Positions 31,982 to 51,265 of a stretch of 64,000 nt of DNA are shown here, one piece after another. The notes under the pieces were generated by a model. That model saw only the letters and a list, made by a program, of their open reading frames with translations, ran no database searches and was not told the DNA's origin. Source of the stretch: an uncultured Chloroflexia bacterium (GTDB lineage: Bacteria; Chloroflexota; Chloroflexia; DTKN01); NCBI GenBank assembly GCA_964592645.1, contig CAZQFV010000016.1, positions 2,282 through 66,281 on the forward strand, in the 5' to 3' direction. Both the position numbers and the translations under genes were made by a program. Each line of letters begins with the position of its first letter. Position 1 is the first letter of the stretch.

Positions 31982-32379
31982 CACCACCCCTCCATCCGCA
32001 TCCGCGTCTGCCCGACCACATTGATGCTGGGCCAGATGAGCGGGACCAACGACGGGACCCGGTAGGACACCCGGCAGAGGAGAAAGCCGTTGCCCGCGCC
32101 GATAAAGACCTCGCGCTCGCCGGGGAGCAGGCCGTACCCCATGGCTTCCTGGCGGGCGGCCTGGCCCGGGTTGGGGCTGACCACTCCGACCCGGCAGCCG
32201 GACCGCGCCGCCTCCTGGACTACCTGGTTGGCGTACACGGTGTAGCCGCCGTTGACCAGGAGCACGACCAGCATAATCAGAATGGGCAGGCCCAGCAGCA
32301 GCTCATACATCTCCACGCCGCCGGAGCGTCCCTCCCGCAGCAGCGCCGGTCCCGGTGGCCGCCGTTTTCTCCTTGCCAT
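31981..32379 (-). CDS. TadE-like pseudopilin
   Basis: ATG at 32379 lies 7 nt after GGAGG. GGVEMYELLLGLPILIMLVVLL...QEAARSGCRVG is TadE-like. Confidence 0.6.
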   Translation of the reverse strand: MARRKRRPPGPALLREGRSGGVEMYELLLGLPILIMLVVLLVNGGYTVYANQVVQEAARSGCRVGVVSPNPGQAARQEAMGYGLLPGEREVFIGAGNGFLLCRVSYRVPSLVPLIWPSINVVGQTRMRMEGW

Positions 32380-32458
32380 TGCCATACCTCCTTCCGGCGG
32401 CCCGCCTGCCGGCGTTGCGTCGGCCTCGGGGCAGGCAGGCCGCCGGTTGCCCGGCGTT

Positions 32459-32665
32459 CTACCCCCAGGAAAAGAGGGTGCTGATGATCCGCCGGCCGAA
32501 ATCCAGGATCGCGCTCCCCAGGAGCCGGTAGACCACCGCCACGATGGCCCCCAGGAGCGCCAGCCCCAGCAGGATCTCGACCATGTCGAGGCCTTTGCGC
32601 CCGCGCAGCAGGCGCGGAACCAGGTTCTGCCACGTCAACTGCCGTCCAAACATTCTTGCCAGCAC
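32459..32665 (-). CDS. flp: Flp-family type IVb pilin
   Basis: GTG at 32665 follows GGAGGTG. The RGRKG/LDMVEILLGLALLGAIVAVV prepilin motif has Glu at +5. Confidence 0.65.
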   Translation of the reverse strand: MLARMFGRQLTWQNLVPRLLRGRKGLDMVEILLGLALLGAIVAVVYRLLGSAILDFGRRIISTLFSWG

Positions 32666-32715
32666 GCTACACCTCCATGCATTTGCTTATTCCTGCCGGA
32701 GCAGGGACCTTGCCG

Positions 32716-33585
32716 CTACATTCCACTGAACAGGGCCAGGACGTTGAGCAGGATCGGCCCCACCACCAGGGCCAGGAAGGGAAGGACGAAGAACACCAGC
32801 AGCACCGGCGTCATCTTGCCGCCCAGGCTGCGCACCCGCCCTTTGGCCGTGTTCAGGTAGGTCCGAAAGGTGTCCTGCGACAGCCCCAGCAGCCGCCGGC
32901 CGGCGTCCACCCCCTGACGCTCGATCTCGGCCAGCTTGACAAAGAGGGCCATCAGCTCGGCCAGGCCCGTTTCCTCGGCGCGGGGCCGCAGGACGTCCAG
33001 GAAGCGCCCACCTTTGGTCTCGGCCTCGCGCTGGGCCCGGCGCAGGAACTCGCCCAGCAGCCCGGGGTAGTCGCCGGCCACCGCCCGCAAGGCCGCTTCC
33101 ACCGTGGTGCCCCCGACGACCTCCAGGGCCAGCCGGTCACTCAGGTCGGGCAGGGAGCGCTGGATCTCGCGCAGGGCCTTCTCCGAGGCCTTGCGCAGCT
33201 GGTTGATCGGCAGGAGCGCGCCCAGGAGCCCAAAGACGAAGGCAAAGATCACGTCGCCCATCACGAGCAGGCCGAACAGCGCCCCGCCCCCGGCCAGGGC
33301 CACGATCAAGGCATAGACCATCGCCCCGGTCCAGCCCAGCCACTGCCCCTGGAAATGCGCCCAGAAGAGCCGGCGCTCCAGGTTGCCGAGCGTTGCGCCG
33401 GGCAGGACCTGGCGCAGCAGGCCGGCCAGCGGCAGCACCAGGGCCTGGCCGAGCGGGATCGTCTCTTCCTCCACGCCGGCCACCAGGCGCAGTTGCGCCT
33501 CCACGGGGGCCCGGCGCAGGGGCAGCAGCTCGTACCCCGCGACCAGCACGGCCAGGCCGAACAGCAGACCGATGATGAGTGGCAT
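32716..33585 (-). CDS. tadC: TadC-like type II secretion system F-family membrane protein
   Basis: ATG at 33585 follows AGGAGGTG. The topology and C-terminus (GKMTPVLLVFFVLPFLALVVGPILLN) are T2SSF-like. Confidence 0.75.
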   Translation of the reverse strand: MPLIIGLLFGLAVLVAGYELLPLRRAPVEAQLRLVAGVEEETIPLGQALVLPLAGLLRQVLPGATLGNLERRLFWAHFQGQWLGWTGAMVYALIVALAGGGALFGLLVMGDVIFAFVFGLLGALLPINQLRKASEKALREIQRSLPDLSDRLALEVVGGTTVEAALRAVAGDYPGLLGEFLRRAQREAETKGGRFLDVLRPRAEETGLAELMALFVKLAEIERQGVDAGRRLLGLSQDTFRTYLNTAKGRVRSLGGKMTPVLLVFFVLPFLALVVGPILLNVLALFSGM

Positions 33586-33594
33586 CTACACCTC

Positions 33595-33972
33595 CTATTT
33601 CCGCCGGCCCGCCCGGGACGGGCAGGGACCGCTATCCGCGCTCCCGGGCGCGGGGCTCACGGCAGGCGGCGGATCGCCGACGTAATAGTCCGGGGACCAG
33701 GACGAACCATTTGTGGTCGGCGTGCCATCGCCGGCGAACGGTTCTGGGCCCAGTTCCGCTGCCGCCAGGCCGCCTCCTGCACTGCCCGGGCAGGTCTCGA
33801 CGATTTGCAGGGCCTGGCACACCAGGCAGAGGGCAAAGCGGCGAAAGGCGATCCAGCCGTCCCGCGACTGGATGACCACATACTGGGTTGGGTCCAACGC
33901 GGGGGCCGGCCCGGTGCCGCCCATGCCCAGCAGGTCAGCCCGGTACTCGCCGCACACGGGGCGGATGCTCAT
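33595..33972 (-). CDS. hypothetical protein
   Basis: ATG at 33972 follows a strong AGGAGGA. Confidence 0.5.
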   Translation of the reverse strand: MSIRPVCGEYRADLLGMGGTGPAPALDPTQYVVIQSRDGWIAFRRFALCLVCQALQIVETCPGSAGGGLAAAELGPEPFAGDGTPTTNGSSWSPDYYVGDPPPAVSPAPGSADSGPCPSRAGRRK

Positions 33973-33982
33973 GGCAGTCCTC

Positions 33983-34165
33983 CTACTTGCCCGCCGCTTT
34001 GAGCTGCTTCCGCAGCAGCCAGAGCGCGACGACGCCCAGCACGGTCAGCACCCCGGCGCTGACGAGAGCAAAGGCGTCCTTGCCAGTCACAAACAAGATC
34101 ACGCCCAACAGGACCAGGATGAACCCACCAACGGCGTACAGTTGCTGCTTTCGCTTTGGTTCCAC
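33983..34165 (-). CDS. small two-TM membrane protein
   Basis: GTG at 34165 lies 5 nt after AAGGAGG. Confidence 0.45.
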   Translation of the reverse strand: MEPKRKQQLYAVGGFILVLLGVILFVTGKDAFALVSAGVLTVLGVVALWLLRKQLKAAGK

Positions 34166-34195
34166 GGCGACCTCCTTGTGTCTTTGCTCGGATCA

Positions 34196-34402
34196 CTATG
34201 GTACGGCATCCCAGGCCAGCGCCTGGGCGAGAACGTATCCCACGCTGATCGTGGATAGAATGATGGTCACATCCGTCAATACCAGCTCGAGCAGGCCGGC
34301 CGCGGTGGGCGCGTGCCGGTAGCGGCACAGCCGCACCCCCGCCACGATCAGCGGCAGCAGAACCGTAAAGTAGTAGATGCGGGTCCCATCTTGCCTGTTC
34401 AT
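34196..34402 (-). CDS. small membrane protein
   Basis: ATG at 34402 overlaps the tadB stop (ATGA). Confidence 0.45.
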   Translation of the reverse strand: MNRQDGTRIYYFTVLLPLIVAGVRLCRYRHAPTAAGLLELVLTDVTIILSTISVGYVLAQALAWDAVP

Positions 34403-35292
34403 GGTTCGGCATCCTGGATCATGCTATGGACAATCAGGTACCCCAGGCCCATCGCCCCGGCCACCAGCAGGATGAGGATCTGCCCGGCGGGGCTACTTTG
34501 AAACTGGTGGACCATCGGGTCGCTGCTCAGAAAGAAATAGGCCCCGACGGCCAGCAGCGGTGTGATCTTCATCAGGAAGCGCTGCTCGGACAGGCTGGTC
34601 TGGATCTCGGCGCGCATCTCCAGGTTCGCGCGCGTCTCGGCCGCCTTCGACGCCAGGATGTCGAGCATGTCCGGTCCAGCTCGTTGGAAGACGAGCAACG
34701 TTCCCGCCAGGCGCACCAGGTCCTGGTTGCGGGCCCGCTCCTGCAGGCGCTGCAGACCGACCTCGATCGCTCCGCCGGCCGCCTCGGTGTCCACCAGCAC
34801 CCGGTCGAACTCGCGCGCAAGCAGGCTGCCCGGATTGACCCGTTTGAGCGCCGCCGACACGTCCTGCAGGGCCGGCCGCACCGAGCGCTGCACCCGCAGC
34901 GCCCCGGCAATATCCTCCGACGCCCCGGGCAGTTCCTGGGCCAAGAGCTTGGCCTGGCGGTCGATCTCCCAGCCCAGCCACCATAGCGGCAGGAACGAGC
35001 CGACCACTCCCAGCACCAGAGCGAAGCCCACCGGCACCTGCGCCACCAGGGCCAGGATGAGCAGCACCACCCCCACCACCAGGCGGAGCAGGGCAAAGGT
35101 CGGCGCCGACATCCGGACGCCGATGGTGTTCAGCTTGTCCTCGACTCGCTGCCCCCGACGCGCCGGCCTGACCGCCTCCGGGAGCAGCGTGCCGGCCGGC
35201 GCCGGCACCGCCGCCGGGGCCCGTTCGACGATCAGCCAGCGGGCCAGCACGAATACCGCCGCGCCGGCGAGCAACGCAATCAGCAAGACCAC
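34399..35292 (-). CDS. tadB: TadB-like type II secretion system F-family membrane protein
   Basis: GTG at 35292 lies 5 nt after GGAGGTG. The organisation is T2SSF-like. Confidence 0.75.
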   Translation of the reverse strand: MVLLIALLAGAAVFVLARWLIVERAPAAVPAPAGTLLPEAVRPARRGQRVEDKLNTIGVRMSAPTFALLRLVVGVVLLILALVAQVPVGFALVLGVVGSFLPLWWLGWEIDRQAKLLAQELPGASEDIAGALRVQRSVRPALQDVSAALKRVNPGSLLAREFDRVLVDTEAAGGAIEVGLQRLQERARNQDLVRLAGTLLVFQRAGPDMLDILASKAAETRANLEMRAEIQTSLSEQRFLMKITPLLAVGAYFFLSSDPMVHQFQSSPAGQILILLVAGAMGLGYLIVHSMIQDAEP

Positions 35293-35305
35293 GGCATCAC
35301 CTCCG

Positions 35306-36679
35306 TCACTCTTCTGCCGCCGGCCCGAACTCCCAGGCCAGCCGGCCGATCCAGCGCGGGTCCTCCGCCTGGACCCAGGCTTCCTGCTCGGGGTCGAAGC
35401 GAAAGATATCCCGCAGGTACACGTCGCCCTTGCGCAGGTGCGGCTCGACCTCGCAGATGCGTGTGACCACCCGGCGGGACGTGCCCGGTAGAAAGCCGAT
35501 GTGCACCACCAGGCGGACGGCCATGGCGAAGCGTTCCTTGGCCGCTTCCTTGTTGCCGGAATAGTACCCGGCCCCCTGCGCCAGGTTGACGATCATCCGC
35601 GGGGTATCGTAGGCCGACTCGGTGTGCACGGTCGTCATGCCATAGTGCCCGGTGGAGAGCGCCCGCAGCGCCTGGTAGGCGGCCTCGCCGTCGCGGATTT
35701 CGCCGGGGATCAGCCACTGCGGGCTCTGCCGCAGGGCGTTGCGCACTAGCGTTCCCAGGCCGATCTCGCCCTTGCCCTCCAGGTTGGCCGGCCGCGCCTC
35801 CATCGCTACCCAGTTGTAGGCGGGGCCGAGCAGCAACTCGTGCGTGTCCTCGACGGTGACGACGCGCTCCCCGGGCGGGATAAAGGTGCAGAGGACGTTC
35901 AGAAAGGTCGTCTTGCCGGTCTTGGTGCCGCCGGCGACGACGATGTTGGTATGGCGGCGCACGGCGTCGGCCAGGAAATCGGCCATCTCCTGGTTGAGCG
36001 TCCGCCATTGCAGCAGGTCCGCCAGCGCGGGCAGCTCCTGCGTCCAGAAGCGGACGTTGATCGAAGGGTACTCGCCCACCGCGACCGGCGCAAGCGCCAC
36101 GTTGAAGCGCGCCCCCGAGGCAAAACCCCGGGTGCGCGGGATGCGGCCGTCCTCGATGGGGTGCATCTCGTTGGCCGTGCGGTTGACCAGCTCCAGAATG
36201 CGCGCCGCGGCATTGCGGGCCTGGTCCGGCGTGCATTGGAAAGAATGGTCCTCGCTCCAGCCGGGCTGGCCGCGGATGGACAGCCACAGCCGGCCGTCGG
36301 GATTGAGCGCCAGTTCCTCCAGGTCGGTGCGGTACGGCGGCATATAGTCCTGAAGGATGCCCAGGCCGATGACCCGATTGACCACCGCCCGCACCAACCG
36401 CTCTTCCTGCTGGCGGGTCAGGTGCAGGTCGCGCCGGGCGATGATCTGCGAGATCAGCCGGTAGGCTGCTTCCTCGAAGCGCTGGCGGTTCTCGGGGCTC
36501 TTGTCGCCGAACTCGCCGCTGGTGAACTGCTTCTTCAGGCCGGTGACGATCTCTTCGCTCACCTCGCGCAGCAGTTCCTCGGAGAGGGGGGCCGGCGCCG
36601 TTCCGGTTCCGTAGACCCCCATGCCCACTTGCAGGAACAGATCGCCCAGCGCTTCGCCGCTTTCCGGGTGTTCGCTCAT
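35306..36679 (-). CDS. cpaF: CpaF/TadA (VirB11/T2SS-E family) secretion ATPase
   Basis: Walker A VVAGGTKTGKTTFLN. Also VVTVEDTHEL, IPGEIRDGEA and a His box GHYGMTTVH. Confidence 0.9.
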   Translation of the reverse strand: MSEHPESGEALGDLFLQVGMGVYGTGTAPAPLSEELLREVSEEIVTGLKKQFTSGEFGDKSPENRQRFEEAAYRLISQIIARRDLHLTRQQEERLVRAVVNRVIGLGILQDYMPPYRTDLEELALNPDGRLWLSIRGQPGWSEDHSFQCTPDQARNAAARILELVNRTANEMHPIEDGRIPRTRGFASGARFNVALAPVAVGEYPSINVRFWTQELPALADLLQWRTLNQEMADFLADAVRRHTNIVVAGGTKTGKTTFLNVLCTFIPPGERVVTVEDTHELLLGPAYNWVAMEARPANLEGKGEIGLGTLVRNALRQSPQWLIPGEIRDGEAAYQALRALSTGHYGMTTVHTESAYDTPRMIVNLAQGAGYYSGNKEAAKERFAMAVRLVVHIGFLPGTSRRVVTRICEVEPHLRKGDVYLRDIFRFDPEQEAWVQAEDPRWIGRLAWEFGPAAEE

Positions 36680-36688
36680 CCGCTTCCC

Positions 36689-38047
36689 CTATCCCAGCAA
36701 CCGGGCAAGCAGGCCCTGTTTCTTCTGCTGCGGGGCGAGGGCCGGCAGCGCCGTCCCGGCAAAGATGCTGGCTACCACCGCCTGCACGCCCTCCATCAAG
36801 ACCCCGCCCCGCGCCGGGTTCCCCGGCTCCAGCAGGCGCACCGGCGTCGTCTTGGCCGGGTCGAAATAGTCCTGGAGCTCGCGCAGCGAGGGGTCGAAGC
36901 GGACCACCGCCAGGTTGGGCGGACACCAACTGGCAAAGGTCTCGGGGAAGATCCCCGAGGCAAAGGCCTGGGCCAGGTAGGTCGGGTTGACGAGGTCGCC
37001 CTCGCGGGCCATGTTCAGGATGGTAAAGATGCTCTCCCGCGGCACCAGTTCTTTGCCACCGTCGTTCAGCGTCAGGAGGGCGTGCGTCCCAAAGACCAGT
37101 TGGTCCACGTGGACGCGGGTCGGGCAGAGGACGGTCAGCACGACGTTGGCCCGGCGGAGCGGGTCGATGCTCCACGGTTCCTTGGTGTGCGGCAGGTCCA
37201 TCACGATGCAGGGGAAGCGCTCCCGGGCCTGGTAGACCAGGTCGCGCAGCAGCAGCTTGCTCTCGGCCATCGCGTTCATGGCCTCGATCTCGTTGCGCGG
37301 GGCCAGCATCACCGGCCAGTCGCCGAACTTTTGGATGCTGGACAGAAACCCTTCCAGGTTCGGCCGGCGCAGGTATTGCAGCATGTCGGCCGGCTCACCC
37401 AACCCCAGGTAGAAGCGCAGCGCATCCTGCCGGCAAAAGCCCATCAGGAGACAGGGCACGCCCATGGTGTTGATGACCTGCCACAGAGCCACGGCCAGGG
37501 TGCTCTTGCCCACCCCGCCCGACCAGGACATGAGGGCGATGACCTTCTGGTGGGGCATGGCGACCGGGGCGGCCGTCGTGCGCGGCCCCGGTTGCGCCGC
37601 CATCATGGGCGCCATCTCCACCACCTGCCGGCGCCGCTCAAAGCCCAGCTCGGCCGTCCGGGCCACCACCGCCTGGGCGTTGACCGGCCGGACCAGCACC
37701 TCGCGCACGCCCGGCAGCGCGGCGAAGCGGGGGCGCAGCTCCGCCTGGTCGGGGTCCAGCACGACCACGAATACGGTGTCCAGGCTGGCCTGCCGGATCG
37801 CTTCAAACTTTTCGAAACCGACGCCGCGCACGGCCAAACCCGGGCGGTCGCGGTTGTCCACCATGTTGCCGTCCAGGATGCAGGCCTCGGGCTTGGCCTC
37901 GCGCAGGAACCGCTCCAACTGATCGGGTGAGGTGCAGATCGAAGCCAGGGCCACGTCGGGGTAGGCCTGGGCCAGGCGCAGGAAATCGCCGAAATCGGCG
38001 CCCCCCGAGTTGGCCAGCATCAGGCTGATTGTCTTCGGTTTTTCCAT
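36689..38047 (-). CDS. cpaE: CpaE-like protein: receiver-like N-domain + MinD/ParA-type ATPase
   Basis: Deviant Walker A SWSGGVGKSTLAVAL. The ATG overlaps the cpaB stop by 1 nt. Confidence 0.75.
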   Translation of the reverse strand: MEKPKTISLMLANSGGADFGDFLRLAQAYPDVALASICTSPDQLERFLREAKPEACILDGNMVDNRDRPGLAVRGVGFEKFEAIRQASLDTVFVVVLDPDQAELRPRFAALPGVREVLVRPVNAQAVVARTAELGFERRRQVVEMAPMMAAQPGPRTTAAPVAMPHQKVIALMSWSGGVGKSTLAVALWQVINTMGVPCLLMGFCRQDALRFYLGLGEPADMLQYLRRPNLEGFLSSIQKFGDWPVMLAPRNEIEAMNAMAESKLLLRDLVYQARERFPCIVMDLPHTKEPWSIDPLRRANVVLTVLCPTRVHVDQLVFGTHALLTLNDGGKELVPRESIFTILNMAREGDLVNPTYLAQAFASGIFPETFASWCPPNLAVVRFDPSLRELQDYFDPAKTTPVRLLEPGNPARGGVLMEGVQAVVASIFAGTALPALAPQQKKQGLLARLLG

Positions 38048-38877
38048 CAGGGCCTCTCCGCCGGCGGCTTCAGGATAGCCAGGAGCGCCGCCAGGTCGAG
38101 CGGTGCGACGGCCACATCTTGGGCATCGGGCGGGCGCAGCACCAGATGCAGCGTGGCCTTGGCATTCAGCATGGCCAGCAGTTCTACCGGGCTCAACTCC
38201 TGTGGGGGCACAAACTGGCCGGTGAGGGTGTCGGTGTAGCCGGCCGTGATAGCCAACGGCGCCAGCAGCACGTCGAGCACGACCGTGTTCTGCTCGGACT
38301 GCCGGCTATCGGTCTGCCCCGCCGGGAGCACCCCTTCGAGGTTGTGCTCCGTGACCGGCGCTTCCTGGTAGCGAAAGGCCTGCGGCACTACCAGCACGCG
38401 TGCCCCGCGCACGACGACCGCCGTCACGGAGGATCCGGCCCCCACCCCGCCGCTGTCCACCGTGGCCACCACATCCACCAGGTCGCCGGCCCGTAGCACC
38501 CCCAGCACCCCTGTCGCCCGGGTCACGTCCACGGCGATGGCCCGGTGGTCGGGGGCCAGGCCGGCGGCGATGGCCGAGCCGCCGGTGTTGCCCACCATCT
38601 CGGCGGTGACCTGGTCGCCGACCACCCGCTGCACCTGGAGGATCTTACCCACCAGCGCGGCCGGGTCTTGCGCCGCGTTCGGCAGCACCGCAGAGGGGTG
38701 CACGTTCTTCACCTCCAGCACGTCCGCCGTGAGGACCGACCCGGCCTCCAGATAGGTCGTGCTCACCACTACCGGGACCTGTTTGTTCAGGCTGCTCAGG
38801 AAGAGCGCCGTCAGCACAAAGGCCACCACGGCCAGGCCGATGACCAGTAGAAATCGCGACGTTCCTTTCTTGCCCAT
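38047..38877 (-). CDS. cpaB: CpaB/RcpC-like Flp pilus assembly protein (SAF domain)
   Basis: ATG at 38877 follows GAGGAGGA. It has an N-terminal TM helix, then VPVVVSTTYLEAGSVLTADVLEVKNV (SAF-like). Confidence 0.7.
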   Translation of the reverse strand: MGKKGTSRFLLVIGLAVVAFVLTALFLSSLNKQVPVVVSTTYLEAGSVLTADVLEVKNVHPSAVLPNAAQDPAALVGKILQVQRVVGDQVTAEMVGNTGGSAIAAGLAPDHRAIAVDVTRATGVLGVLRAGDLVDVVATVDSGGVGAGSSVTAVVVRGARVLVVPQAFRYQEAPVTEHNLEGVLPAGQTDSRQSEQNTVVLDVLLAPLAITAGYTDTLTGQFVPPQELSPVELLAMLNAKATLHLVLRPPDAQDVAVAPLDLAALLAILKPPAERP

Positions 38878-38890
38878 GGACCGTTCCTCC

Positions 38891-41800
38891 TCAACTGTTT
38901 CCGACCGGATCGAACCCGGCCAGCTCTGTGTCTCCCGGCTCCGCACCGGCGAGCATGCGCGTGCGCACCAGGCTGGGCTCCAGCAGGACCTCGTCGGTCG
39001 AGCGCCCCAGGACTACCACGGCCTCGCCCACCGGCAGGCGGGAGAGGTGCATCAGGTACTCAGGAGCGACCAGGCCGGCCGAGACCTTGGCCATCGCCTC
39101 GACCAGGATCTGCCGGTCGGGGCCGACCTTGAGGCGGAAGACGTAAAAGTTCATACAACTGCTGACGATCTCGAGCGGAAAGGCCGAGGGCGACTGCCCC
39201 AGCCACATCAAGAAGATGCCGTACTTGCGGCTGTCGCGGGCCAGGCTGGAGAAGAGTTCCGATGTCGAGGCTGCCGCCCCCTGGTTGTTCTTCTGCGCCG
39301 GGTTGACGACGACCTTGTTGGCTTCCTCGATGGCCAGAATGAAGCAAGGGGCATCACGGCCGTTGCCCAGGCTGCGGCGGTAGCGCACCCGGCCGGCCTC
39401 ATAGATCTGGGCGATCATTAACCCAAACAGGATGGCCTTTTCCGTCTCGCCCATCGTGCCGCCCTCAAAGACGGCGATCCGGTCGGGAAACATCACCCGG
39501 GTGATGTCGAACGGCGCTTCGTCCTCTTCGAGCGCGGCGTACATCCGCGCCAGCCGGCCCTGGGCCAGCACGCCCAGGCGGTTGAGGATGCCCTGCAAGG
39601 CCTCGACGTCCCGGGCCTGCTTGCGGCCTTCTTTCGCTGCCAGCAGCCCGCGCAGCGCCCGGTACCAGCGGCCGAAATCGACCGGTCGGCTGCGCCGGCA
39701 GGCGACGCGATGGCGGACCCGCTCCGCGCAGTCCTGCAGATAGATGCGGCCGTCGGCCCGGGGGGCGGGTAGCGCGTACCCCTCCACTTCCAGGCGGGCC
39801 ACCTCGGTGGGACCCAGGCGCGAACGCTCCAGGCGCGCCGCGTGCTCCTCCTCCGCGTTCTGGCGGCGCCTGGCGCCGATCTCGGGTGGGGTGGGGTCCA
39901 GCTGCTCCACGTCAAAGGTCAGCGCGCCCTCGTCCAGGTACATCTGGCGCAGCGTGTCCCGCAGAAAGCCCTTCTGCCGCTCTCCCAGGCCGCCGGCGTT
40001 GCAGATCACGTCCACCGTCATGGCCATTTGCGCCTCGGGGTCCACGTCCAGGATGAACTGCAGCGGGTTCCAGCGCACCGGCCGTGGGCCGCCCGGGTAC
40101 AGGCTGTGGTAGACGAAGCGCTCCGGCGGAACGACCCGCACCATCTTGCGATAGTTCAGGCCCCAGTCAAAGACCACGGCCGGCATCGCCCAGCGCTGGT
40201 TCATCTCCTGCAGCAGGTGCATCGTCGCTTCGCTCTTGCCGTAGCCCGAGTCGCCAAAGATGCCGAAATGCCCCATGCGCTCGCGGGTCAGGAGATACGG
40301 CACGTCCAGCTCCTCGCCCGTCTCGTAGGAGATAAACTGCCCCAGGCTCACCACGTCCTGGCGCTCGCTCGCTATGCCCAGCAGGCCGGGACCGTAGACG
40401 GCGTAGGGCGGGATGGCCTCCTTGGTGGTCGTGGCCCGGCCGCCTTCAAAGACCGCCGGGGAGACCAGGGCGGCAAAGTGGAGCATGGGCAGCATGTTGC
40501 CAAAGCGCAGCCCCTCAAAGACCCCGAGGGAGCGTTCCTGGTGGGGAGGGGGCGAGAAGGAGAGCAGCCAAGGCCGGACGTTCTGGACTTCTTCGGAGGA
40601 AAGCACCAGCGCCCGCGCCGGCGTCACCACGTTGTCGGTCTGCCCGTGAAAGGCCAGGGCATAGAGGCCGGCCGCGGCCCGCAGCGCCTCGGCCGAGGGG
40701 AAGAACCAGAACGATTCCGACATGTACGCCCCGGTCAACATCATCTCGTCCAGGAGGCTCAGGCCGCGCTCAAAGAGGTTGGCCACGGCCTGGGCGGTGG
40801 CATCTTTCCACATGTACGACTTGACCAGCGAGAGGCCGGCCGACACCCCGGTGGACATGCCTCCGGCCTGCGTCACCACCCGCGCCAGGCCCGTCCCGAT
40901 GCTCGTGCCGTCGGCCACCCCTTGCGATGTCGTGTCGCCCACGCTCTTGCCTTCCTGGTGCGACCAGGCTTCGCTCTCGGTGTCGGTGACGCTGCGGCTC
41001 TCGGCGTGGCTCTCCGATGCGGTGTCGGAGACGCTGCGCTCGTGCGTGGCCCCGGAAGCCCACATCGTGGAAACGGCCAGCCCCTGCGAGGTGGAGGCTT
41101 CCCGCGAGACGGTGTCGCTCTCCGAGCGCGTGTCGGAGTGGGTCTCGCCGTCCGTCGTGCCGTGGGTGGAGGAGCTCATCGAGGCATGGGCGGTGGTTGT
41201 CTGGTCCACGATGACGCTCTCGGAGTGGGCGACGTTTGTCCCCGTCGTCTGGGATTGGGACGCGGTATCTTGGGTAGACGCGGTGTGTGTGTCGGAGCTG
41301 CCTGTCCCTCCCGAGAGGCCGAATGTACCCGATGCCTGGCGGCTGTCGGTGTGCTGGGTACCGCTCCCGACCGCGGTGGCCTCCCCCGTGGCCTCGGAAC
41401 GGTTCCAGGTGTGGTGGTAATCGGCCGTGGCCCCGACGCTGGCGATGCCGGGGACGCCTCCGCTGACCGAGACGCTGCCGCCGGCCGTGTCGGCGCTGCC
41501 CTCGGTGGAGGTGCGGCTGCTGGTGTGCTGGGTGGTGGCACTCTGCCCGTCCGCGCTGCCGTGGCCGACCGTGGCGCTGGCCTGCCAACCGCTCTGGCTG
41601 GATTCGCCGCGGGCGTCGGACGCCCCTTGCGCATGGCTCGTGCCCTGGGTGGTCGTGTGGATCTGCGTCACCCCGGTCGTCTCGGTGCGCCCGGTGGTGT
41701 GCGATTCGCTGGAGGAACCGCCGGAGGTGGAAGAGCGCGACACCGCGTGCTCCGTGCCGTCGGTGTGGGCCGTCCCCACGCTGTGGGCCGTGCCCTCTGC

Positions 41801-42928
41801 CTGCGCCGTGCCGGCCGACTCGGTGCGGCTGCCCCCGGCAGAGGACATGGTTCCGTGGGACTCGCCTTCGGTATGGGCCCGGCCCTGGGTGTCGGTGACC
41901 GTGGTCCCGACGGCGTGGGCCGTCCCGTGGGTGTAGCCGTCGGCGATGGAGGTGCCCTCGCTGTGCGCCGTGCCCGCGCTGATGACGTGCGAGCGACCCT
42001 CCTCGTAGGAGGTGCTGCGGCCGGCCGTGTCCATGCCGGAAAAGACGGTGGGGATGGCAAAGTTCAGGGCGACGCTCTTTTGCCCCTGCACGCGGCTGAG
42101 CCAGATGCTGGCCTCCTCCCGCCAGCGCTGCTGCAGGCGGAAGATGGCCTCGCGGGGAATGCCCCAGGCCAACGTCACGCAGGCAAAGTCCAGGAGCGCG
42201 CGCTGCAGGCCGCGAAAGATGAGCTCGTTCTGTTCCAGCGTCTCCTCGGCCCGTGCTTCTGCTTTGCCCCCGGCAGTTCTTTCCCCGATCGCCCGCGTGC
42301 CCTGCTCGCGCGGGTCGGGCTGGCCGATGGCCACAAAGGCGTGGGTGAACCCGGCCAGCGATCGGGCAACGAAATCCCGCTCTTCCTCGGCCATCGGCAC
42401 GAAGCGCGACTGCGGGATTGTGCGCAGGTTGGCCAGGAGCGCGGTAAAAGCCTCGCTGCCCCGCGCGATGGCCTCCTCCGCGGTCGCCGCCGTCCCCTGC
42501 GCGGCGTACACCTGCACCAGGCCCAGCGGGCGCTCGCCCAGTTGCCCAAACATCCCGGCCACGATCACCAGCAGGTTGACGTCGGCGTTGTACAGGCCCT
42601 TGAGCATCCGGGCGGAGCGCTGCAGCACGGTGGTCTGGTCGCGCATCTGGCGGGGGAGGTATTCCAGGACGGTGGGAAAGACGGCCTTGTACCAGGGCCG
42701 GCCGTCCGCGCCCAGGCCCAGCACCGGGTCCACGCCGGCGACCTGCAGCAAAAAGTAGCGCAGCCGGCCGCCGCCCCGTACCGAGTCGAGCACCGGGGTC
42801 ACCCCCAGCACGGCCGGCGCCGGGATGGCCGGCGCAACCTCGTCCCAGCCGAGGAGGGTAATCCCGGCCCGGACGATCTTGCTCTGCCGCGCGCCCTGGA
42901 CCAGCCGGTCCAGGAAGGTCACCGCCAT
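38891..42928 (-). CDS. 1345-aa FtsK/HerA/VirB4-class ATPase with an unknown N-domain and a ~400-aa low-complexity insert
   Basis: ATG at 42928 follows GAGAGGA. Walker A GIFGDSGYGKSE and Walker B CFILAIEEANK are present. The ARDSRKYGIFLMWLGQSP segment is typical of DUF87/VirB4/HerA-type NTPases. Confidence 0.8.
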   Translation of the reverse strand: MAVTFLDRLVQGARQSKIVRAGITLLGWDEVAPAIPAPAVLGVTPVLDSVRGGGRLRYFLLQVAGVDPVLGLGADGRPWYKAVFPTVLEYLPRQMRDQTTVLQRSARMLKGLYNADVNLLVIVAGMFGQLGERPLGLVQVYAAQGTAATAEEAIARGSEAFTALLANLRTIPQSRFVPMAEEERDFVARSLAGFTHAFVAIGQPDPREQGTRAIGERTAGGKAEARAEETLEQNELIFRGLQRALLDFACVTLAWGIPREAIFRLQQRWREEASIWLSRVQGQKSVALNFAIPTVFSGMDTAGRSTSYEEGRSHVISAGTAHSEGTSIADGYTHGTAHAVGTTVTDTQGRAHTEGESHGTMSSAGGSRTESAGTAQAEGTAHSVGTAHTDGTEHAVSRSSTSGGSSSESHTTGRTETTGVTQIHTTTQGTSHAQGASDARGESSQSGWQASATVGHGSADGQSATTQHTSSRTSTEGSADTAGGSVSVSGGVPGIASVGATADYHHTWNRSEATGEATAVGSGTQHTDSRQASGTFGLSGGTGSSDTHTASTQDTASQSQTTGTNVAHSESVIVDQTTTAHASMSSSTHGTTDGETHSDTRSESDTVSREASTSQGLAVSTMWASGATHERSVSDTASESHAESRSVTDTESEAWSHQEGKSVGDTTSQGVADGTSIGTGLARVVTQAGGMSTGVSAGLSLVKSYMWKDATAQAVANLFERGLSLLDEMMLTGAYMSESFWFFPSAEALRAAAGLYALAFHGQTDNVVTPARALVLSSEEVQNVRPWLLSFSPPPHQERSLGVFEGLRFGNMLPMLHFAALVSPAVFEGGRATTTKEAIPPYAVYGPGLLGIASERQDVVSLGQFISYETGEELDVPYLLTRERMGHFGIFGDSGYGKSEATMHLLQEMNQRWAMPAVVFDWGLNYRKMVRVVPPERFVYHSLYPGGPRPVRWNPLQFILDVDPEAQMAMTVDVICNAGGLGERQKGFLRDTLRQMYLDEGALTFDVEQLDPTPPEIGARRRQNAEEEHAARLERSRLGPTEVARLEVEGYALPAPRADGRIYLQDCAERVRHRVACRRSRPVDFGRWYRALRGLLAAKEGRKQARDVEALQGILNRLGVLAQGRLARMYAALEEDEAPFDITRVMFPDRIAVFEGGTMGETEKAILFGLMIAQIYEAGRVRYRRSLGNGRDAPCFILAIEEANKVVVNPAQKNNQGAAASTSELFSSLARDSRKYGIFLMWLGQSPSAFPLEIVSSCMNFYVFRLKVGPDRQILVEAMAKVSAGLVAPEYLMHLSRLPVGEAVVVLGRSTDEVLLEPSLVRTRMLAGAEPGDTELAGFDPVGNS
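40829..42031 (-). repeat. coding low-complexity region (Ser/Thr/Gly/His/Ala-rich degenerate repeats; residues ~300-700 of the ATPase)
   Basis: Recurrent units include GTAHSEGTS, GTAHAVGTT, GRAHTEGES and GTAHSVGTAHTDGTEHAV. By inspection there is no Lys or Cys between residues ~300 and ~660. Confidence 0.8.
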
Positions 42929-42940
42929 GGCCGTATCCTC

Positions 42941-43660
42941 TCAAAAGATGCCCCGCTGCCGGCGGCCGACCACGTCGAAGAGGATCTCTTCCAACGTGGC
43001 GAAGCGAAAGGCCGGGCTCTGCCGCAGCACGGTGAACTCTTTCCACACGTAGGTGACGAACCCGCCCGGCACGGCGAACAGGGCCAGGATCAGCAGTGCC
43101 AGGTTGACGTAGCCGGCGTTGCGGGCCAGGACCGAAGCGGCCCCTTCCGGCGAGAGGCCGGTCGAGGCGGCCCACTCGGAGATCGTCCCCAGGTTAAAGG
43201 CCCAGCCGGCCAGTCGCAATACCCAGAGCATGCCGACCTCGCCGAGCACAAAGGTGCGCGTGCGCGAGATCATGTCCGCCCGCTTCATTCGCAGGAGCGC
43301 CGAGGCGGTTCCACCGAGCAGCCACATCAACAGGAGGATCACATCTACGGTGCCGGGGAAGACCAGGGCCGTGACCAGCGCCGCGGCCAGCACCAGGAGC
43401 AGGCGGAGCGTGCGGCGGGCCAGGACCTGCCGGGGCCGGCTGAACGGGTTGGCCGGCCCCGGCCGCAGCCCGCTGATGGCATAGCCCTCCACCTCGGCCT
43501 GCGGCGCTTCCACCAGCCGCACCAGGACCAAAACCAGGGGGATCTGCAGCAGGGCCAGCAGGTTCTCCCAGCAGAAGTAGACCACCAGGAGCAACCCGTT
43601 CAGCAGCGCGATGCCGGCGGTGCGCAGCAGCTCAACTACCGTGTCCAACAGTGCCCCCAC
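42941..43660 (-). CDS. polytopic membrane protein (possible VirB6-like role; function unknown)
   Basis: It has several hydrophobic helices. The start is uncertain: GTG at 43660 lacks an SD, while the TTG four codons downstream has GGGGG upstream. Confidence 0.55.
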   Translation of the reverse strand: MGALLDTVVELLRTAGIALLNGLLLVVYFCWENLLALLQIPLVLVLVRLVEAPQAEVEGYAISGLRPGPANPFSRPRQVLARRTLRLLLVLAAALVTALVFPGTVDVILLLMWLLGGTASALLRMKRADMISRTRTFVLGEVGMLWVLRLAGWAFNLGTISEWAASTGLSPEGAASVLARNAGYVNLALLILALFAVPGGFVTYVWKEFTVLRQSPAFRFATLEEILFDVVGRRQRGIF

Positions 43661-44174: not shown

Positions 44175-45398
44175 TTACTTGATCAGCGTCACGCCAAAGG
44201 CCGTGACGCCGACGCGGGGCAGCGGGATGGGAAAGTGGCCGGCCACCCCATAGTCCGTCACCACCATCAGGTCCACCTGGTACCAGCCCGGGTCCTCGAC
44301 GGCGAGCTGGCCGCAGCCATAGGCCCGGTAGGTGAGGTTTTCCAGGGGGCCGACTACTTCCCAGGGCCACGCCGGGGCGGGCGGGACCTCCCAATCGGGG
44401 TGCTGGACGCGCACGCCGAACTTGGGGCCGAGGACAGCGCCGATCCAGTCCTTGCTCTCCTCGGTCAGCTTCATGAAGCCGCTCGTTTCACCCACGGCCG
44501 GCGGGTCCGGGCTACGCGTGACCTCGGTGTGCTCGACGATCGTGCCCTCGTAGCACTGGTTGGGCTGCCCCGGCGGATGCTGGCAGGTGTACCAGTGGTG
44601 GATGTGCTCGACCGGCCAGGTCGTGACGGTGAAGCAGAGCGTCACCCCCATCCCCGCAGGATCCTGCCCGACGATCACGGGGAAGGGCGGGTAGTACCCG
44701 AGCGAAAGGGCGGGCGGCGTGGTATGGTCCTCGTCCCAGGGGTCCGGCAGCGGGACGATGGGTCGCTCCGTGGCCGGCGGCCGGGTCGGGCGGTCGGGTG
44801 GATCGGTGGCCGGCGGCTGCGTAGGCACACCTGGGGTCTCATTGCCGCCTCCGCCCCCACCTCCACCGCCGGCATCGCGGCAGTTGCGGTCGTCCGGCCC
44901 AAAGTTGGAATAGTCGCCGGCCATACTGGTCCAGACCTCGCGCCAGATCTCCACCTGGCAGGGCGGGGCGCCACCACAGTCGCCATCGTTGTAGGAGATG
45001 TAGCGGTTGGTCAGCGTCCAACCGCCCTCCCAGGTGGAGTTGTGGTACCAGGTGCCGGCCGACCACTGCCCGTCGGCGCAGAGCAGCCGGTTCCAGCGGC
45101 CCACCGGGGGATAGGGTGGCGCATCGTCGCCGACGCCGTGCCCGAGGTTGACGCGGTCAGGGATCTTTTCAAAGATGGCCCGCTGGTCGGCGGGAGTCCA
45201 GTCCGTCCCGCAGTCGCCGCTGTTATTGCACCAGGTCGAATGGATGACGTACTGGATGTGCACCCAGCCGGGCGGGGCCGACTCCTCCCGGACGTAGAAC
45301 ACCCAGTAGTCCTCGGCCTGCGCCGGTGGGGTAGCCGCCAGCAGCCCCGGCACGAGAACGAGCAAGATGGCGACGATTCCAATACCGCGTTTCCACAT
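44175..45398 (-). CDS. secreted protein with poly-Gly and Pro/Thr linkers
   Basis: ATG at 45398 follows AAGGAGG. The signal peptide is MWKRGIGIVAILLVLVPGLLAATPPAQA. A GGGGGGGG run is present. Confidence 0.6.
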   Translation of the reverse strand: MWKRGIGIVAILLVLVPGLLAATPPAQAEDYWVFYVREESAPPGWVHIQYVIHSTWCNNSGDCGTDWTPADQRAIFEKIPDRVNLGHGVGDDAPPYPPVGRWNRLLCADGQWSAGTWYHNSTWEGGWTLTNRYISYNDGDCGGAPPCQVEIWREVWTSMAGDYSNFGPDDRNCRDAGGGGGGGGGNETPGVPTQPPATDPPDRPTRPPATERPIVPLPDPWDEDHTTPPALSLGYYPPFPVIVGQDPAGMGVTLCFTVTTWPVEHIHHWYTCQHPPGQPNQCYEGTIVEHTEVTRSPDPPAVGETSGFMKLTEESKDWIGAVLGPKFGVRVQHPDWEVPPAPAWPWEVVGPLENLTYRAYGCGQLAVEDPGWYQVDLMVVTDYGVAGHFPIPLPRVGVTAFGVTLIK

Positions 45399-47961: not shown

Positions 47962-49869
47962 TCACCTCTGCCGCCACACCTCGAACCAGCGCTCGGCCAC
48001 CTCGACCCCCACCACCTCCAGAACGTCATCTGTCCACTCGTTCATCCAACGGCGATGCTCATAGCCGGCCTCGAGGATGCTCTGCTCAATGGGGTCCAGG
48101 ATCGGCAGGGCTTGCCCTGTCCACCGCCACCTTTTGGGCGGCTCGTCGCCGGTCCGGATTCGTTTCACGAGGATGGCTCGGCGCTGCGCGGGAGACAGCT
48201 TCTCCTGGTCGTCCAGGTACAGCATCCAGGCGCGCACGCGGGCCAGCGGGGTGCCGGCCGACAGTCGCCCCAGGGCCGGCTCGGCGATGCCATAGTCCTC
48301 CAGCCAGTCCCGCACCAGCTCCGCCTCCGACGCCCGGCCGGCCCAGGAGCCCCCGGATGGGGTGGTCTCCGAGGGCGCCTCCTTCACAGCTCCCAGTCCA
48401 CACTCATGACACGGGACAAACAGGTCGGATTCTGGGGGACCGTCCTGGTCAACGACGTACCGAAGCCCACCACAGACGGCACAGTCCGTCTCGGGTAGGA
48501 CCTCGTCATCCAGCGCGTCGGGCGGCCTTGGCACTTCCGACTCCGCGCCCGGGCCCGCACTGGGTTCCTCCTCCGGCCCGCCCCGGGCCCGTGCCGCCCG
48601 GACTACCCCCTCCCGCAAAAAGGCCACTGACACGAACGGCCGGCCGGCCGCCGCTGCTTGCTCCAGCATCGCCTGCACCGGCCCCACCCCGGCCTCCCGG
48701 CACAGCGTCAGGACACGCTCCAGCAGCAGCGGCCCCGGAGAAAAGCGGTTCAGGCAGACGAACAACCGCACTGCCTCGCGAAAACTGCCACCCGGCAGGG
48801 CCGCCCCCGCGCGCAGGACGCGCCGCAGCGTCTTGCGGTGCTCCGACGCCCCACGGACCTGCGGCCAGGCAAACGCCAGCCGCCGGCAGGGCGTTTCCCC
48901 CGATCTATCTAGGGCCCGGTCTATGGCCTGCGCCAGATCGACCGGCTCCTGGTCCCGCAGGCACCAGGCCAGGACCAAGAGTTCCTCGACCAGCTCGGCC
49001 GGCGCCTGGGCGACGGCGGCCGGGGAGACCTCGGGGGAGAGCAGGCCACGGGCGACCTCGTACCGCGCACGGGATGGAGGTTGGGCCTGGTCCGCCGGGG
49101 TTGGCCACCGTTCGGCGACACGGGATTCGAAATGGTCGAGGACAGTCAGCATGCCGGAGACAAGGTTGGGTTGAGCCTGTTCTGAATCTGTAGGGGAATC
49201 AACAACAAAAACCGCCGCGCCCGGTTGTTGTTTTCCTTCCCCTACTTTCCCTTTACCCCTTTCCATGGACGCGAACTGGGGTTCGCTACTGTCGCGAACT
49301 GTAGTTCGCATGCCCCCGAAACTTTCTTCAGGGGCACGTGAACTGGGGTTCGCATGCCCCTGAAGCTTCTTTCGCCCTGGCCGCACGCCCTCCCGGTAGA
49401 GCGTCCGCAGGTAGGCCAGCAGAGGATAGAAGTCGTACTGGTTCTCCTCCTTCTGTCCCCAGGAGGTGTGCCCGGGCAGGATCAGCAGGTAGCCATAGGG
49501 CGGGCCGGCCGCTTCCCGGTACGTCTGCGTGCAGTAAGCCGTGACTTCCTCCTGGACAAGGCCATTGACTTTGCTCACCCACGCCGGCGCGCCTGCCCCG
49601 GCCCGCGCCAACAGGTCGCATTCGCGCAGGGTATGGAGGACCTTTTGCAGCCCCCGCCGGGTCATGCCCATCCGCCCGGCGACGGCCGCCACGGTCGGGG
49701 GCTCTGCCCCAGACCACCATTCCATCCAGATCTGGACGATGGCGTTGACCTCGGCCGGCGCCAGGTACAGCAGGTCCTGGTAGGCGAGCAGGAGGTTGGG
49801 CACCGGGCAGAAGCCGGCCTCCAAGAGGTCTTCGCCAAAGCGCCCAACGATCTCCTCGCCGTGCGGCAT
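47962..49869 (-). CDS. putative replication organiser/initiator-like protein (N-terminal wHTH, internal Cys4 zinc ribbon)
   Basis: ATG at 49869 lies 3 nt after the upstream stop. The wHTH is VAAVAGRMGMTRRGLQKVLHTLRECDLL. The zinc ribbon is CAVCGG...CHECG. The track's 1046-aa version was trimmed. Confidence 0.5.
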   Translation of the reverse strand: MPHGEEIVGRFGEDLLEAGFCPVPNLLLAYQDLLYLAPAEVNAIVQIWMEWWSGAEPPTVAAVAGRMGMTRRGLQKVLHTLRECDLLARAGAGAPAWVSKVNGLVQEEVTAYCTQTYREAAGPPYGYLLILPGHTSWGQKEENQYDFYPLLAYLRTLYREGVRPGRKKLQGHANPSSRAPEESFGGMRTTVRDSSEPQFASMERGKGKVGEGKQQPGAAVFVVDSPTDSEQAQPNLVSGMLTVLDHFESRVAERWPTPADQAQPPSRARYEVARGLLSPEVSPAAVAQAPAELVEELLVLAWCLRDQEPVDLAQAIDRALDRSGETPCRRLAFAWPQVRGASEHRKTLRRVLRAGAALPGGSFREAVRLFVCLNRFSPGPLLLERVLTLCREAGVGPVQAMLEQAAAAGRPFVSVAFLREGVVRAARARGGPEEEPSAGPGAESEVPRPPDALDDEVLPETDCAVCGGLRYVVDQDGPPESDLFVPCHECGLGAVKEAPSETTPSGGSWAGRASEAELVRDWLEDYGIAEPALGRLSAGTPLARVRAWMLYLDDQEKLSPAQRRAILVKRIRTGDEPPKRWRWTGQALPILDPIEQSILEAGYEHRRWMNEWTDDVLEVVGVEVAERWFEVWRQR

Positions 49870-49871
49870 CG

Positions 49872-50174: not shown

Positions 50175-50201
50175 CGCCACCTCCGTCGGCCGCGGTCCGG
50201 G

Positions 50202-50951: not shown

Positions 50952-51265
50952 CGTTCCTCCTTGTGCTCTCTGGTTGTGTCTTTCTGCCAACCCGGCGCGG
51001 CACGTCGCCTGGCCGGGAGATTGCCAACCTGTGCCTGTCGCCGCCCGGCGGGGGAGGGTGGCAGGTGGTTCTTTTCATCTTCACCCGCCGCCAGTGCCCC
51101 ACCGGGACGGCACCCGATCACAAAAGAGACCGGACCGACTGTGCGGCAACACCCGGGTGTACCCGTCAGAAACGAGCATCTTTTTGCCACTATCAGGCAT
51201 TTCCGTCGTCGCTCCGGGCGCCTTTGGGTGTAGTCCGGGTGCCCATGCGGTGAACCCGCGCGCGC

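Follow-up and report, generated by a model that had tools for sequence, protein, structure and literature searches.

The window analysed here is a stretch of 64,000 nucleotides from an uncultured Chloroflexia bacterium (GenBank assembly GCA_964592645.1, contig CAZQFV010000016.1). Within a long minus-strand operon it contains an open reading frame (ORF) at 38891-42928 (-), which translates into 1345 amino acids (aa) with no internal stops and has a GC3 (G+C fraction at third codon positions) of 0.89. From the ORF, its translation, the GC3 value and a match to the NCBIfam family NF033849, the product is predicted to be a 'serine-rich protein', an ATPase of the HerA/VirB4 class. Members of the FtsK-HerA/VirB4 class of ring ATPases are the motors of DNA transfer, packaging and repair. 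The protein comprises an N-terminal domain (N-domain), a tract of about 400 residues, a smaller domain that we call the mid-domain, and a P-loop ATPase domain. The tract is our subject. We propose that it is a fold-back arm, taking the form of a long antiparallel β ribbon, and that it is neither an interdomain spacer nor an ordinary repeat array. We place the probability of this reading at about 0.6.

Residues 300-700 are encoded by exactly 40829-42031. An earlier reading of the sequence alone had picked out this stretch as dominated by S, T, G, A, H, D, E, Q, R and V, and the residue counts agree (S 74, T 72, G 57, A 46, H 25, E 24, V 24, D 19, Q 19 and R 15, so that S and T each make up 18 %, G 14 %, A 11 % and H 6 %). 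There is a single lysine (K661), a single proline (P493) and no cysteine, with eight aromatic residues (W 4, Y 3, F 1); residues 300-660 contain neither Lys nor Cys. The flanks are ordinary in composition, with L 11 %, R 9 % and P 5-6 %. The loose units quoted in that reading (GTAHSEGTS, GTAHAVGTT, GRAHTEGES and GTAHSVGTAHTDGTEHAV) are all present in the translated protein. They are G-T-A-H-x-x hexapeptides, each made of three small-polar dipeptides. At the DNA level the repeats are degenerate and not exact, as had been said. The tract DNA has a single weak tandem array of period 18 (2.6 copies, 68 % matches), and direct repeats spaced by 18 nt lie at 41738-41975 with 65-80 % identity. A scan of 40800-42100 found no inverted repeats, and an origin at the DNA level for the symmetry described below was rejected. 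Two antisense ORFs lie within the tract at 40722-41420 (+) and 41427-41936 (+), with GC3 of 0.88-0.92. We do not regard them as genes, the high GC3 looking like a by-product of tract codons rich in GGC, ACC, AGC and GCC.

The protein scores 743.8 bits against NF033849 (ser_rich_anae_1, 'serine-rich protein'), where the curated cut-off is 650, with residues 78-1337 aligned to profile positions 19-1160 of 1163; in a genome-wide profile search the score was 741.9 bits. The hallmark of the family, a tract rich in S, G and T between the N-domain and the ATPase, is present here at residues 294-696, and it is this feature that gave the family its name. Homologues carry the same name in RefSeq. The sequence-only reading had known of no VirB4, TraC or HerA protein with such an insert, and that statement falls, given that the protein exceeds the cut-off of a family named for the tract. 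The same reading had foreseen that the insert might prove to be a common, already annotated domain. This holds in a weak sense, as the family is curated and named; it is uncharacterised, and no function, structure or paper on the family or the tract was found in the literature searched. What is new here is the alternation of small and polar residues in the tract, the symmetry of its arms, its uncharged tip, the compensation of indels between the arms and the pairing of low-confidence AlphaFold2 strands at i+j = 987.

Homologues were collected by a full HMMER scan with residues 701-1345 as the query, which gave 456 cluster representatives, 180 of them at E <= 1e-10. Of the full-length homologues (1000-1760 aa), nearly all have a tract rich in S, T and G, which begins near residue 285. 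Over 116 of these full-length proteins the length of the tract runs from 135 to 779 aa with a median of 320, and the composition is S 23, G 16 and T 14 %. Compared with the rest of these proteins the tract is depleted in Lys (0.9 vs 3.3 %), Pro (0.5 vs 4.9 %), Leu (2.3 vs 9.9 %) and Cys (0 vs 0.7 %). The distribution of the family is patchy. The cut-off is exceeded in 2 of 9 genomes of the same taxonomic family, one further genome of the nine having the gene split over two contigs, and in 6 of 301 genomes of the phylum. One family member from outside the window (P0184, 1920 aa) has a Pfam match to PF14528, a homing endonuclease of LAGLIDADG type, which suggests an intein within a family ATPase.

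The tract of the window protein has a strict two-residue register. Gly is autocorrelated at lag 6 (z = 5.1). When Gly, Ala and Ser are taken together the autocorrelation up to lag 12 is positive for all even lags (z ~ +5) and negative for the odd ones (~ -4 to -5 for almost all of them, -3.0 for lag 7). The D, E, H, R and Q residues hold the opposite register to G, A and S. Across the family, 41-59 % of members have z > 2 for the autocorrelation of Gly at lags 4-12, and none has it at an odd lag.

The second property is symmetry. As fixed ends of the insert we took two conserved columns that flank it, P293 and that of residue 697, and then located its most hydrophobic 15-residue window. In 123 members this lies at a relative position of 0.500 (interquartile range 0.490-0.509), compared with 0.31-0.69 for shuffled controls; in the window protein the hydrophobic maximum is at 0.50. 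The tract can thus be divided into three parts. The N-arm (residues 294-483, 41480-42049 (-)), defined by autocorrelation and repeat analysis, has the small-polar alternation throughout and GTAHxx hexapeptides at its base. The tip (residues 484-504, GSVSVSGGVPGIASVGATADY, 41417-41479 (-)), defined by the hydropathy maximum and the family profile, is rich in Gly and aliphatic residues, nearly uncharged, and holds P493, the only proline of the tract. The C-arm (residues 505-696, 40841-41416 (-)) has the same alternation and is as long as the N-arm; it is defined by the arm lengths, the mirrored residue classes and the strands predicted by AlphaFold2 (AF2).

There are 55 members with exactly one inner proline, and these allow the arms to be measured on either side of it. 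The arms range from 77 to 382 residues and their lengths are correlated with r = 0.94 (p = 1e-26), although this value overstates the independence of the data since homologues share descent. The median |L1-L2| is 3 residues, 51 of the 55 agree within 5 residues, and 45 distinct arm lengths are represented. In the window protein the arms around P493 have 199 and 203 residues, and in the homologue from Ruminococcus albus 7 both have 297. Between positions -9 and +11 around the proline the family profile has 30-46 % Gly and, at alternating positions, 30-56 % aliphatic residues, with charged residues mostly at 2-11 % and up to 15 % at two positions. Length changes are compensated between the arms. 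Two homologues (P0004 and P0005) have 12-residue deletions in both arms, corresponding to residues 374-385 and 593-604, at similar distances from the tip. Within the window protein the classes small and large agree between mirrored positions at 128 of 205. We found no support for charge complementarity between the strands, the arms being nearly alike in composition with few acid/base pairs. We also considered an aromatic girdle at the tip and dropped it, as aromatic residues stand at 0-7 % at almost every tip position, with one 15 % peak at +15.

The AF2 model, albeit at low confidence within the tract, places strands in both arms as antiparallel pairs. The pairs 312-321/666-675, 329-359/628-658 and 374-385/602-613 all conform to i+j = 987, and they continue the confidently predicted hairpin 281-291/698-708 that joins the flanking domains. 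Both ends of the tract therefore return to the same pair of strands. With the symmetric fold-back and the conserved tip, this speaks against the extended linker that the sequence-only reading had considered. The tract is also conserved. Its identity to four homologues is 90.8, 50.1, 46.2 and 43.5 %, compared with 52-98 % for the folded domains; for the three more distant of these the folded domains have 51.5-65.3 %, so that the tract lies slightly below. Aligned with the closest of them (P0002) the tract has no indel. Equal arms, a central uncharged tip, the two-residue register and conservation are found across phyla. From these we strongly infer that the two arms pair antiparallel as a β ribbon with one face of small residues and one polar face.

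The protein that carries the tract is best explained, from the predicted folds, as a ring-type motor ATPase belonging to the FtsK-HerA superfamily, with a HerA-like catalytic domain and a VirB4-like N-terminal part, and the same would apply to the other members. The sequence-only reading had put an N-terminal domain on one side of the tract and a HerA/VirB4-class P-loop NTPase on the other, and this arrangement stands. The P-loop domain (residues 871-1337, 38918-40318 (-)) was assigned from Pfam, a PDB profile search, AF2 and Foldseek. It has a Walker A motif GDSGYGKS at residues 892-899 (40232-40255 (-)) and a Walker B motif CFILAIEEA, which contains ILAIEEA, at 1195-1203 (39320-39346 (-)). 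RDSRKYG at 1231-1237 and GQSPS at 1244-1248 provide the Arg and Gln motifs that, with the P-loop, define the HerA-like clade. The sole Pfam match is to DUF87/HerA, a short match around Walker A that passes its cut-off of 23.2 with 26.7 bits. When a profile of six homologues was searched against the PDB, only HerA chains were found, over the Walker B region and the C-terminal part. In the AF2 model of residues 690-1345 the mean pLDDT (predicted local distance difference test) is 84.8, with the P-loop domain mostly above 90. Of the top 50 Foldseek matches of this model, 48 are HerA-type chains and the others are DndH and TdpA, with E from 1.8e-14 to 2e-10. The predicted catalytic domain is thus HerA-like in fold. 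The curated HerA equivalogs of NCBIfam score 19-38 bits against cut-offs of 800-970, and the N-terminal HAS barrel of HerA was not seen, the region before the P-loop being α/β in the AF2 models.

That region includes the mid-domain (residues 698-870, 40319-40837 (-)), an α/β domain ahead of the P-loop domain that was delimited by AF2. Its pLDDT is 70-95 in the model of residues 1-870 and 55-80 in that of residues 690-1345. In the former model the confident α/β domains are at 30-290 and 700-830, with pLDDT mostly 70-95. The N-domain (residues 30-292, 42053-42841 (-)) is likewise α/β and, from AF2 and Foldseek, VirB4/TrwK-like. Averaged over blocks of 10 residues its pLDDT lies mostly at 72-95 but falls at 91-100 (64), at 209-230 (~42) and in the last block (61). 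The 13 best Foldseek PDB matches of the model of residues 1-870 are all to TrwK, the VirB4 of R388. They are modest, with E ~2e-3 to 9e-2, probabilities of 0.54-0.98 and low TM-scores, and the matched residue range is not reported. The sequence-only reading had left the N-domain unassigned, as it is by sequence; from these folds we tentatively call it VirB4-N-terminal-like.

The sequence models for VirB4, TrbE and TraC (Pfam CagE_TrbE_VirB and AAA_10; NCBIfam VirB4) gave no match at E <= 1. An hhalign comparison of a 60-sequence family profile with R388 TrwK aligned 71 columns around Walker A with 5 % probability. We have therefore set aside membership of VirB4 by sequence and keep the likeness as a lead at the level of fold; we would call the protein a HerA-class ATPase with a VirB4-like N-terminal part, and not a VirB4. 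Without the tract it has ~935 aa, close to VirB4 in size (TrwK has 823 aa). A family-invariant RWNPLQ (residues 952-957, 40058-40075 (-)) follows soon after Walker A and aligns with GFNPF of TrwK/VirB4, within the sole stretch that hhalign could align. No candidate membrane span or signal-peptide core was found, no 19-residue segment of the 1345 aa having a mean Kyte-Doolittle hydropathy >= 1.7. A PADLOC scan gave partial matches to HerA models only, and five upstream genes were scanned without a match. A reading as a defence system was rejected on these partial matches and on the neighbours, which are pilus genes.

These pilus genes form a predicted Tad/Flp block immediately downstream at 31532-38946 (-), on the same strand as the ATPase gene. 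Matches in Pfam and NCBIfam identify CpaB (38047-38946), a TadZ/CpaE-like ATPase (36689-38047), CpaF/TadA (35306-36679), TadC (32716-33585), TadE (31981-32385) and a TadG-like protein (31532-31987). TadB (34399-35292) was assigned by synteny and its four hydrophobic segments only, without a T2SSF match. Between TadC and TadE a candidate Flp pilin of 68 aa (32459-32665 (-)) was read from the sequence. It contains ...RKG/LDMVEILLGLALLGAIVAVV... and resembles a Flp-type prepilin, with G-x4-E followed by a hydrophobic stretch. CpaB, the TadZ-like ATPase, CpaF, TadC, TadE and the Tad-like protein together are what would be expected of a Tad/Flp pilus locus. No secretin was found in the Tad operon with Pfam or NCBIfam.

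Upstream of the ATPase gene, on the same strand, is a gene for a 239-aa polytopic membrane protein (42941-43660 (-)) with ~5 hydrophobic segments in a hydropathy scan. It has no family match. It has tblastn matches in four of the contigs that carry family genes (L006, L016, L017 and L023), and genes of similar size are found at the same place in two more (L024 and L026). It is likely to be the membrane partner of the ATPase. Further upstream, a 407-aa protein (44175-45398 (-)) with an N-terminal hydrophobic segment has tblastn matches in L006, L016 and L019 and no family match in Pfam or NCBIfam; it is probably secreted.

The surrounding element carries genes for ParA/ParB, DnaB, several single-stranded DNA-binding proteins (SSBs), a sliding-clamp homologue, a methyltransferase-SNF2 helicase and an integrase. 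From this gene content it appears to be plasmid-like or to resemble an integrative and conjugative element (ICE). The methyltransferase-helicase, at 12838-16362 (-), is an 1174-aa DUF6094 methyltransferase/SNF2-type helicase fusion that adjoins an SSB and unknown genes, and is typical cargo of transmissible elements. At 47962-51102 (-) there is an ORF of 1046 aa whose first ~430 residues are rich in R, G, P and A and look non-coding; its true start is probably near MPHGEEIV, and it has a weak DnaD_N-like match (E = 0.025). Neither a relaxase nor a coupling protein was recognised in the window with Pfam or NCBIfam, even at E <= 1. The usual company of VirB4, proteins of the VirB3, VirB6 and VirB8 types, was likewise not recognised in the window.

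The same arrangement recurs in metagenomic contigs and metagenome-assembled genomes (MAGs) of Chloroflexota and in two megaplasmids of Clostridia. Homologues with ~30 % identity adjoin CpaB, TadZ and CpaF in four metagenomic and MAG contigs (L022, L023, L025 and L026), and closer relatives adjoin Tad genes in three others (L015, L016 and L017). An Armatimonadota contig (L024) ends ~1 kb downstream of its family gene. In an Anaerolineae MAG contig (L018, JALWZT010000343.1) no Tad gene could be recognised near the family gene, either in the 4 kb available downstream or in 10 kb upstream, and the neighbours of the family gene encode a C_GCAxxG_C_C protein and an 8xMP membrane protein. For this reason the linkage to Tad genes may not be universal. 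The megaplasmids, pRUMAL01 of R. albus 7 and pB6464 of Alkaliphilus sp. B6464, are closed and share one gene order: SSB, two unknowns, a small protein, the 'serine-rich protein', CpaB-like, AAA ATPase, CpaF, TadB, TadC, pilin, A24 peptidase and TadE. The annotations of Flp pilin and TadE are found in pB6464 only and not in pRUMAL01. In PLSDB the two megaplasmids are typed by MOB-suite as 'mobilizable' and 'non-mobilizable'.

Taking these observations together, we envisage the following for the fold-back arm. The two halves, of ~200 residues each, would leave and re-enter the protein at one β-hairpin, at the junction of the N-domain and mid-domain. In each half a small residue (Gly, Ala or Ser) alternates strictly with a larger polar one (Thr, His, Glu, Asp, Arg, Gln or Val), and the halves would meet at the uncharged Gly/aliphatic tip around P493, pairing residue by residue as an extension of the hairpin between the domains. 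By standard β-strand geometry the arm would measure ~40-65 nm, forming a stiff stalk that is hydrophilic apart from its greasy end. More speculatively, the face of small residues might pack against arms from the ring's other subunits and so be buried, either lining a tube or forming a silk-like zipper. More speculative again is that the stalk would let a cytoplasmic motor reach or dock onto the membrane, the polytopic membrane partner or the Tad machine, and that this docking might serve pilus-coupled transfer by the mobile element, probably of DNA.

A number of points count against the β ribbon and the role suggested for it. Over the whole tract (residues 288-702) the pLDDT of the AF2 model is 23-36, so that the paired strands are a low-confidence prediction, and low pLDDT combined with an abundance of S, T, G, Q, D and E is the picture that a disordered region gives. 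Neither Gly nor Ser forms β strands readily, and to our knowledge there is no structural precedent for an isolated two-stranded ribbon of 200 residues. When the register was tested relative to the tip, odd offsets exceeded even ones in 33 of 54 members, which is not significant (p = 0.13). Anchored at the base the parity is strong (96-99 % of members), but this could be explained by homology of the arm bases, and we have not used it as independent evidence. The likeness to VirB4 is one of fold alone (E ~2e-3), with the profile alignment to TrwK limited to the Walker A region. The suggestion of DNA transfer comes from the genomic context, in a window where neither relaxase nor coupling protein was recognised. 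The ring oligomer, the burial of the small face and the function of the tip are all speculative.

The main rival, in our ranking, is that the tract is a disordered, low-complexity polar spacer or entropic brush in which bulk composition and rough length are all that matter, holding the motor apart from its partners or tethering it to them flexibly. The Pro/Gln-rich linker of FtsK is the obvious comparison. The low pLDDT would be expected, as would a composition in which S, T, G, Q, D and E prevail and hydrophobic residues are nearly absent, and the five-fold variation in length among homologues. Yet a spacer of this kind is free of constraint on length and register, and there is no reason why its halves should be equal within 3-4 residues over 45 lengths, why a conserved uncharged tip should lie at the exact midpoint, or why there should be a strict two-residue register with compensated indels. 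Proline (0.5 %) and lysine (0.9 %) are scarce, though both are typical of disordered linkers, and the identity of the tract is only slightly under that of the folded domains. Moreover its two ends emerge at the same hairpin, so that the domains are not separated by it. We consider this rival unlikely. Another reading accepts the strands and goes further, with the arms of six (or twelve) subunits forming a continuous β-barrel tube on the axis of the ring, small residues facing the lumen, as a conduit for substrate through the envelope. A face that is strictly G, A or S opposite one that is polar or charged is as in a narrow water-filled barrel. The hairpin is on the N-terminal side of a ring ATPase whose N-terminal part resembles the membrane-proximal domain of VirB4, the tip is uncharged, arms of 77-382 residues would by strand geometry match the range of thickness of monoderm envelopes, and the Tad operon has no secretin gene that we could find. 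The oligomer itself is purely hypothetical, however, and in a protein that has no signal peptide, membrane span or hydrophobic belt it is hard to see how 6 x 400 polar residues would pass the membrane. The tip lacks a conserved aromatic girdle, and a 12-stranded barrel would probably be too narrow for double-stranded DNA. The tube is also improbable, in our judgement. Its fullest version is more doubtful still: the arms would make one G/A/S-lined tube coaxial with the ATPase pore, ~15-125 nm long across the family by standard strand geometry, so that the motor builds its own envelope-spanning conduit, and with the secretin-less Tad pilus and the membrane partner would constitute a conjugative machine of a new type, by which bacteria with a single membrane (Chloroflexota, Armatimonadota, Clostridia) transfer DNA.

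The remaining readings fare worse. The sequence-only reading had noted that the many histidines could bind metal, and a His-based module for metal binding or storage would make sense of the 25 His in 401 residues, recurring in G-T-A-H-x-x units at the base of the N-arm, and of the somewhat raised His content of N-arms across the family (5.3 vs 3.5 %). This is not a property of the family, as His varies from 0 to 10 % among homologous tracts with a mean of 4 %. A spacing of six residues on one face of a strand would be ~20 Å, too far for joint chelation, and the tract has no Cys and none of the classic HxH, HxxH or CxxC motifs. We regard metal binding as very unlikely. The same reading had also raised an exported stalk with the N-domain outside the cell, and the tract might be imagined as a surface stalk, possibly O-glycosylated, like the serine-rich repeat (SRR) adhesins of Gram-positive bacteria. 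The alternation of small residues does recall the SRR regions, and an O-mannosyltransferase-like gene lies at 61274-63352, but that gene is outside the operon. The hydropathy scan finds neither a signal peptide nor a membrane span, there is no sorting signal or anchor, both flanks belong to a cytoplasmic ATPase with the tract returning to its starting point, and the operon showed no SecA2/SecY2 or Gtf genes. An exported stalk is thus extremely improbable. Finally, a frameshift or mis-assembly might have falsely joined two genes, and the unusual composition and the antisense ORFs of high GC3 could raise that suspicion. Against this, the independent homologue P0002, 94 % identical, is of equal length without an indel, more than 100 homologues have a similar tract, and the same single-ORF architecture is shared by independent assemblies and by closed plasmids from strains in culture. 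The earlier view that the tract is no assembly artefact and is a genuine part of one long product is upheld, and we give an artefact next to no credence.

If the halves of the tract do pair as a β ribbon, this would be a new structural element, the β-sheet equivalent of the coiled-coil arm of SMC and Rad50, with a length that has been tuned five-fold in evolution. We know of no ring ATPase of the FtsK-HerA/VirB4 class with a fold-back arm hundreds of residues long. The tract also marks a putative module, comprising membrane partner, ATPase and secretin-less Tad pilus, which mobile elements from three phyla or more have in common. It is a candidate explanation for the movement of plasmids in Chloroflexota and other single-membrane bacteria like them, and for the passage of a substrate through a thick wall. 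Its presence on the closed megaplasmids of culturable Clostridia (R. albus 7 and Alkaliphilus sp. B6464) makes it testable at the bench. Should it prove to be a mating apparatus, the MOB-suite typing of both megaplasmids would change.

The closest known proteins are the other members of NF033849, such as WP_013483306.1 from pRUMAL01 and WP_212382473.1 from pB6464, which share the domain order, the location of the tract and the adjoining Tad genes. There is no structural difference; the copy in the window, from a high-GC host, stands out for its high content of Thr, Ala and His, whereas the clostridial copies are rich in Ser, Asn and Gln. Among characterised systems the HerA ring ATPases (Sulfolobus HerA, 4D2I; Thermococcus HerA-NurA, 9X1M; the Sir2-HerA and DUF4297-HerA defence complexes, 8WOD, 8SUB and 8ZIT) share the predicted catalytic fold, with Foldseek E of 1.8e-14 to 1e-10. 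The Walker motifs are common to both, RDSRKYG aligns with the GRKFG-type motif of HerA and QSPS with QRPS. In contrast, HerA proteins have 500-600 aa with an N-terminal HAS barrel, where the window protein has an N-domain of 260 aa, a fold-back tract of 400 aa and a mid-domain of 170 aa. HerA is partnered by NurA, Sir2 or DUF4297, and here the probable partners are a membrane protein and a Tad pilus.

VirB4 (TrwK of R388; 7O42, 8RTB and 8RTD) has the same two-part build of an N-terminal domain followed by an FtsK-HerA-type ATPase, is also carried by mobile elements, and has an NPF motif after Walker A where ours has NPL. It differs in that the catalytic domain of the window protein is closer to HerA and the partner machine is a Tad pilus. 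There is a published precedent for the combination of a type IV filament machine with an FtsK-HerA-class ATPase in one module of a mobile element. Archaeal integrative-conjugative elements combine VirB4 and VirD4 with TadC, FlaI/PilT, prepilin peptidase and pilins (Krupovic et al. 2019, PMC6563490). Those elements have recognisable VirB4 and VirD4, and none is reported with a Ser-rich fold-back insert; the module described here is known from its genes, with transfer suggested by context.

For the tract itself the comparisons are with fibrous proteins and with ATPase arms. The (Gly-X)n of silk fibroin and the SRR regions of adhesins also have a small residue at every second position, a pattern that promotes conformations which are extended, form sheets or resemble a stalk. 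Fibroin and the adhesins are secreted, with a structural or adhesive role, the SRR regions being glycosylated, whereas the tract lies inside what appears to be a cytoplasmic enzyme, is built of two matched halves and has a polar or charged second face. The arms of SMC and Rad50 are similar by analogy only. In these the chain exits the ATPase, extends over hundreds of residues to a conserved apex where it turns, and comes back in register, and the two halves co-vary in length during evolution, as they do here. The SMC and Rad50 arms are α-helical coiled coils attached to ABC-type ATPases, with a hinge or zinc hook at the apex. The arm proposed here is composed of G, S and T without heptads, and its two-residue register and AF2 strands point to β structure; it would project from a HerA-class ring ATPase and turn at a Gly/aliphatic apex around one proline.

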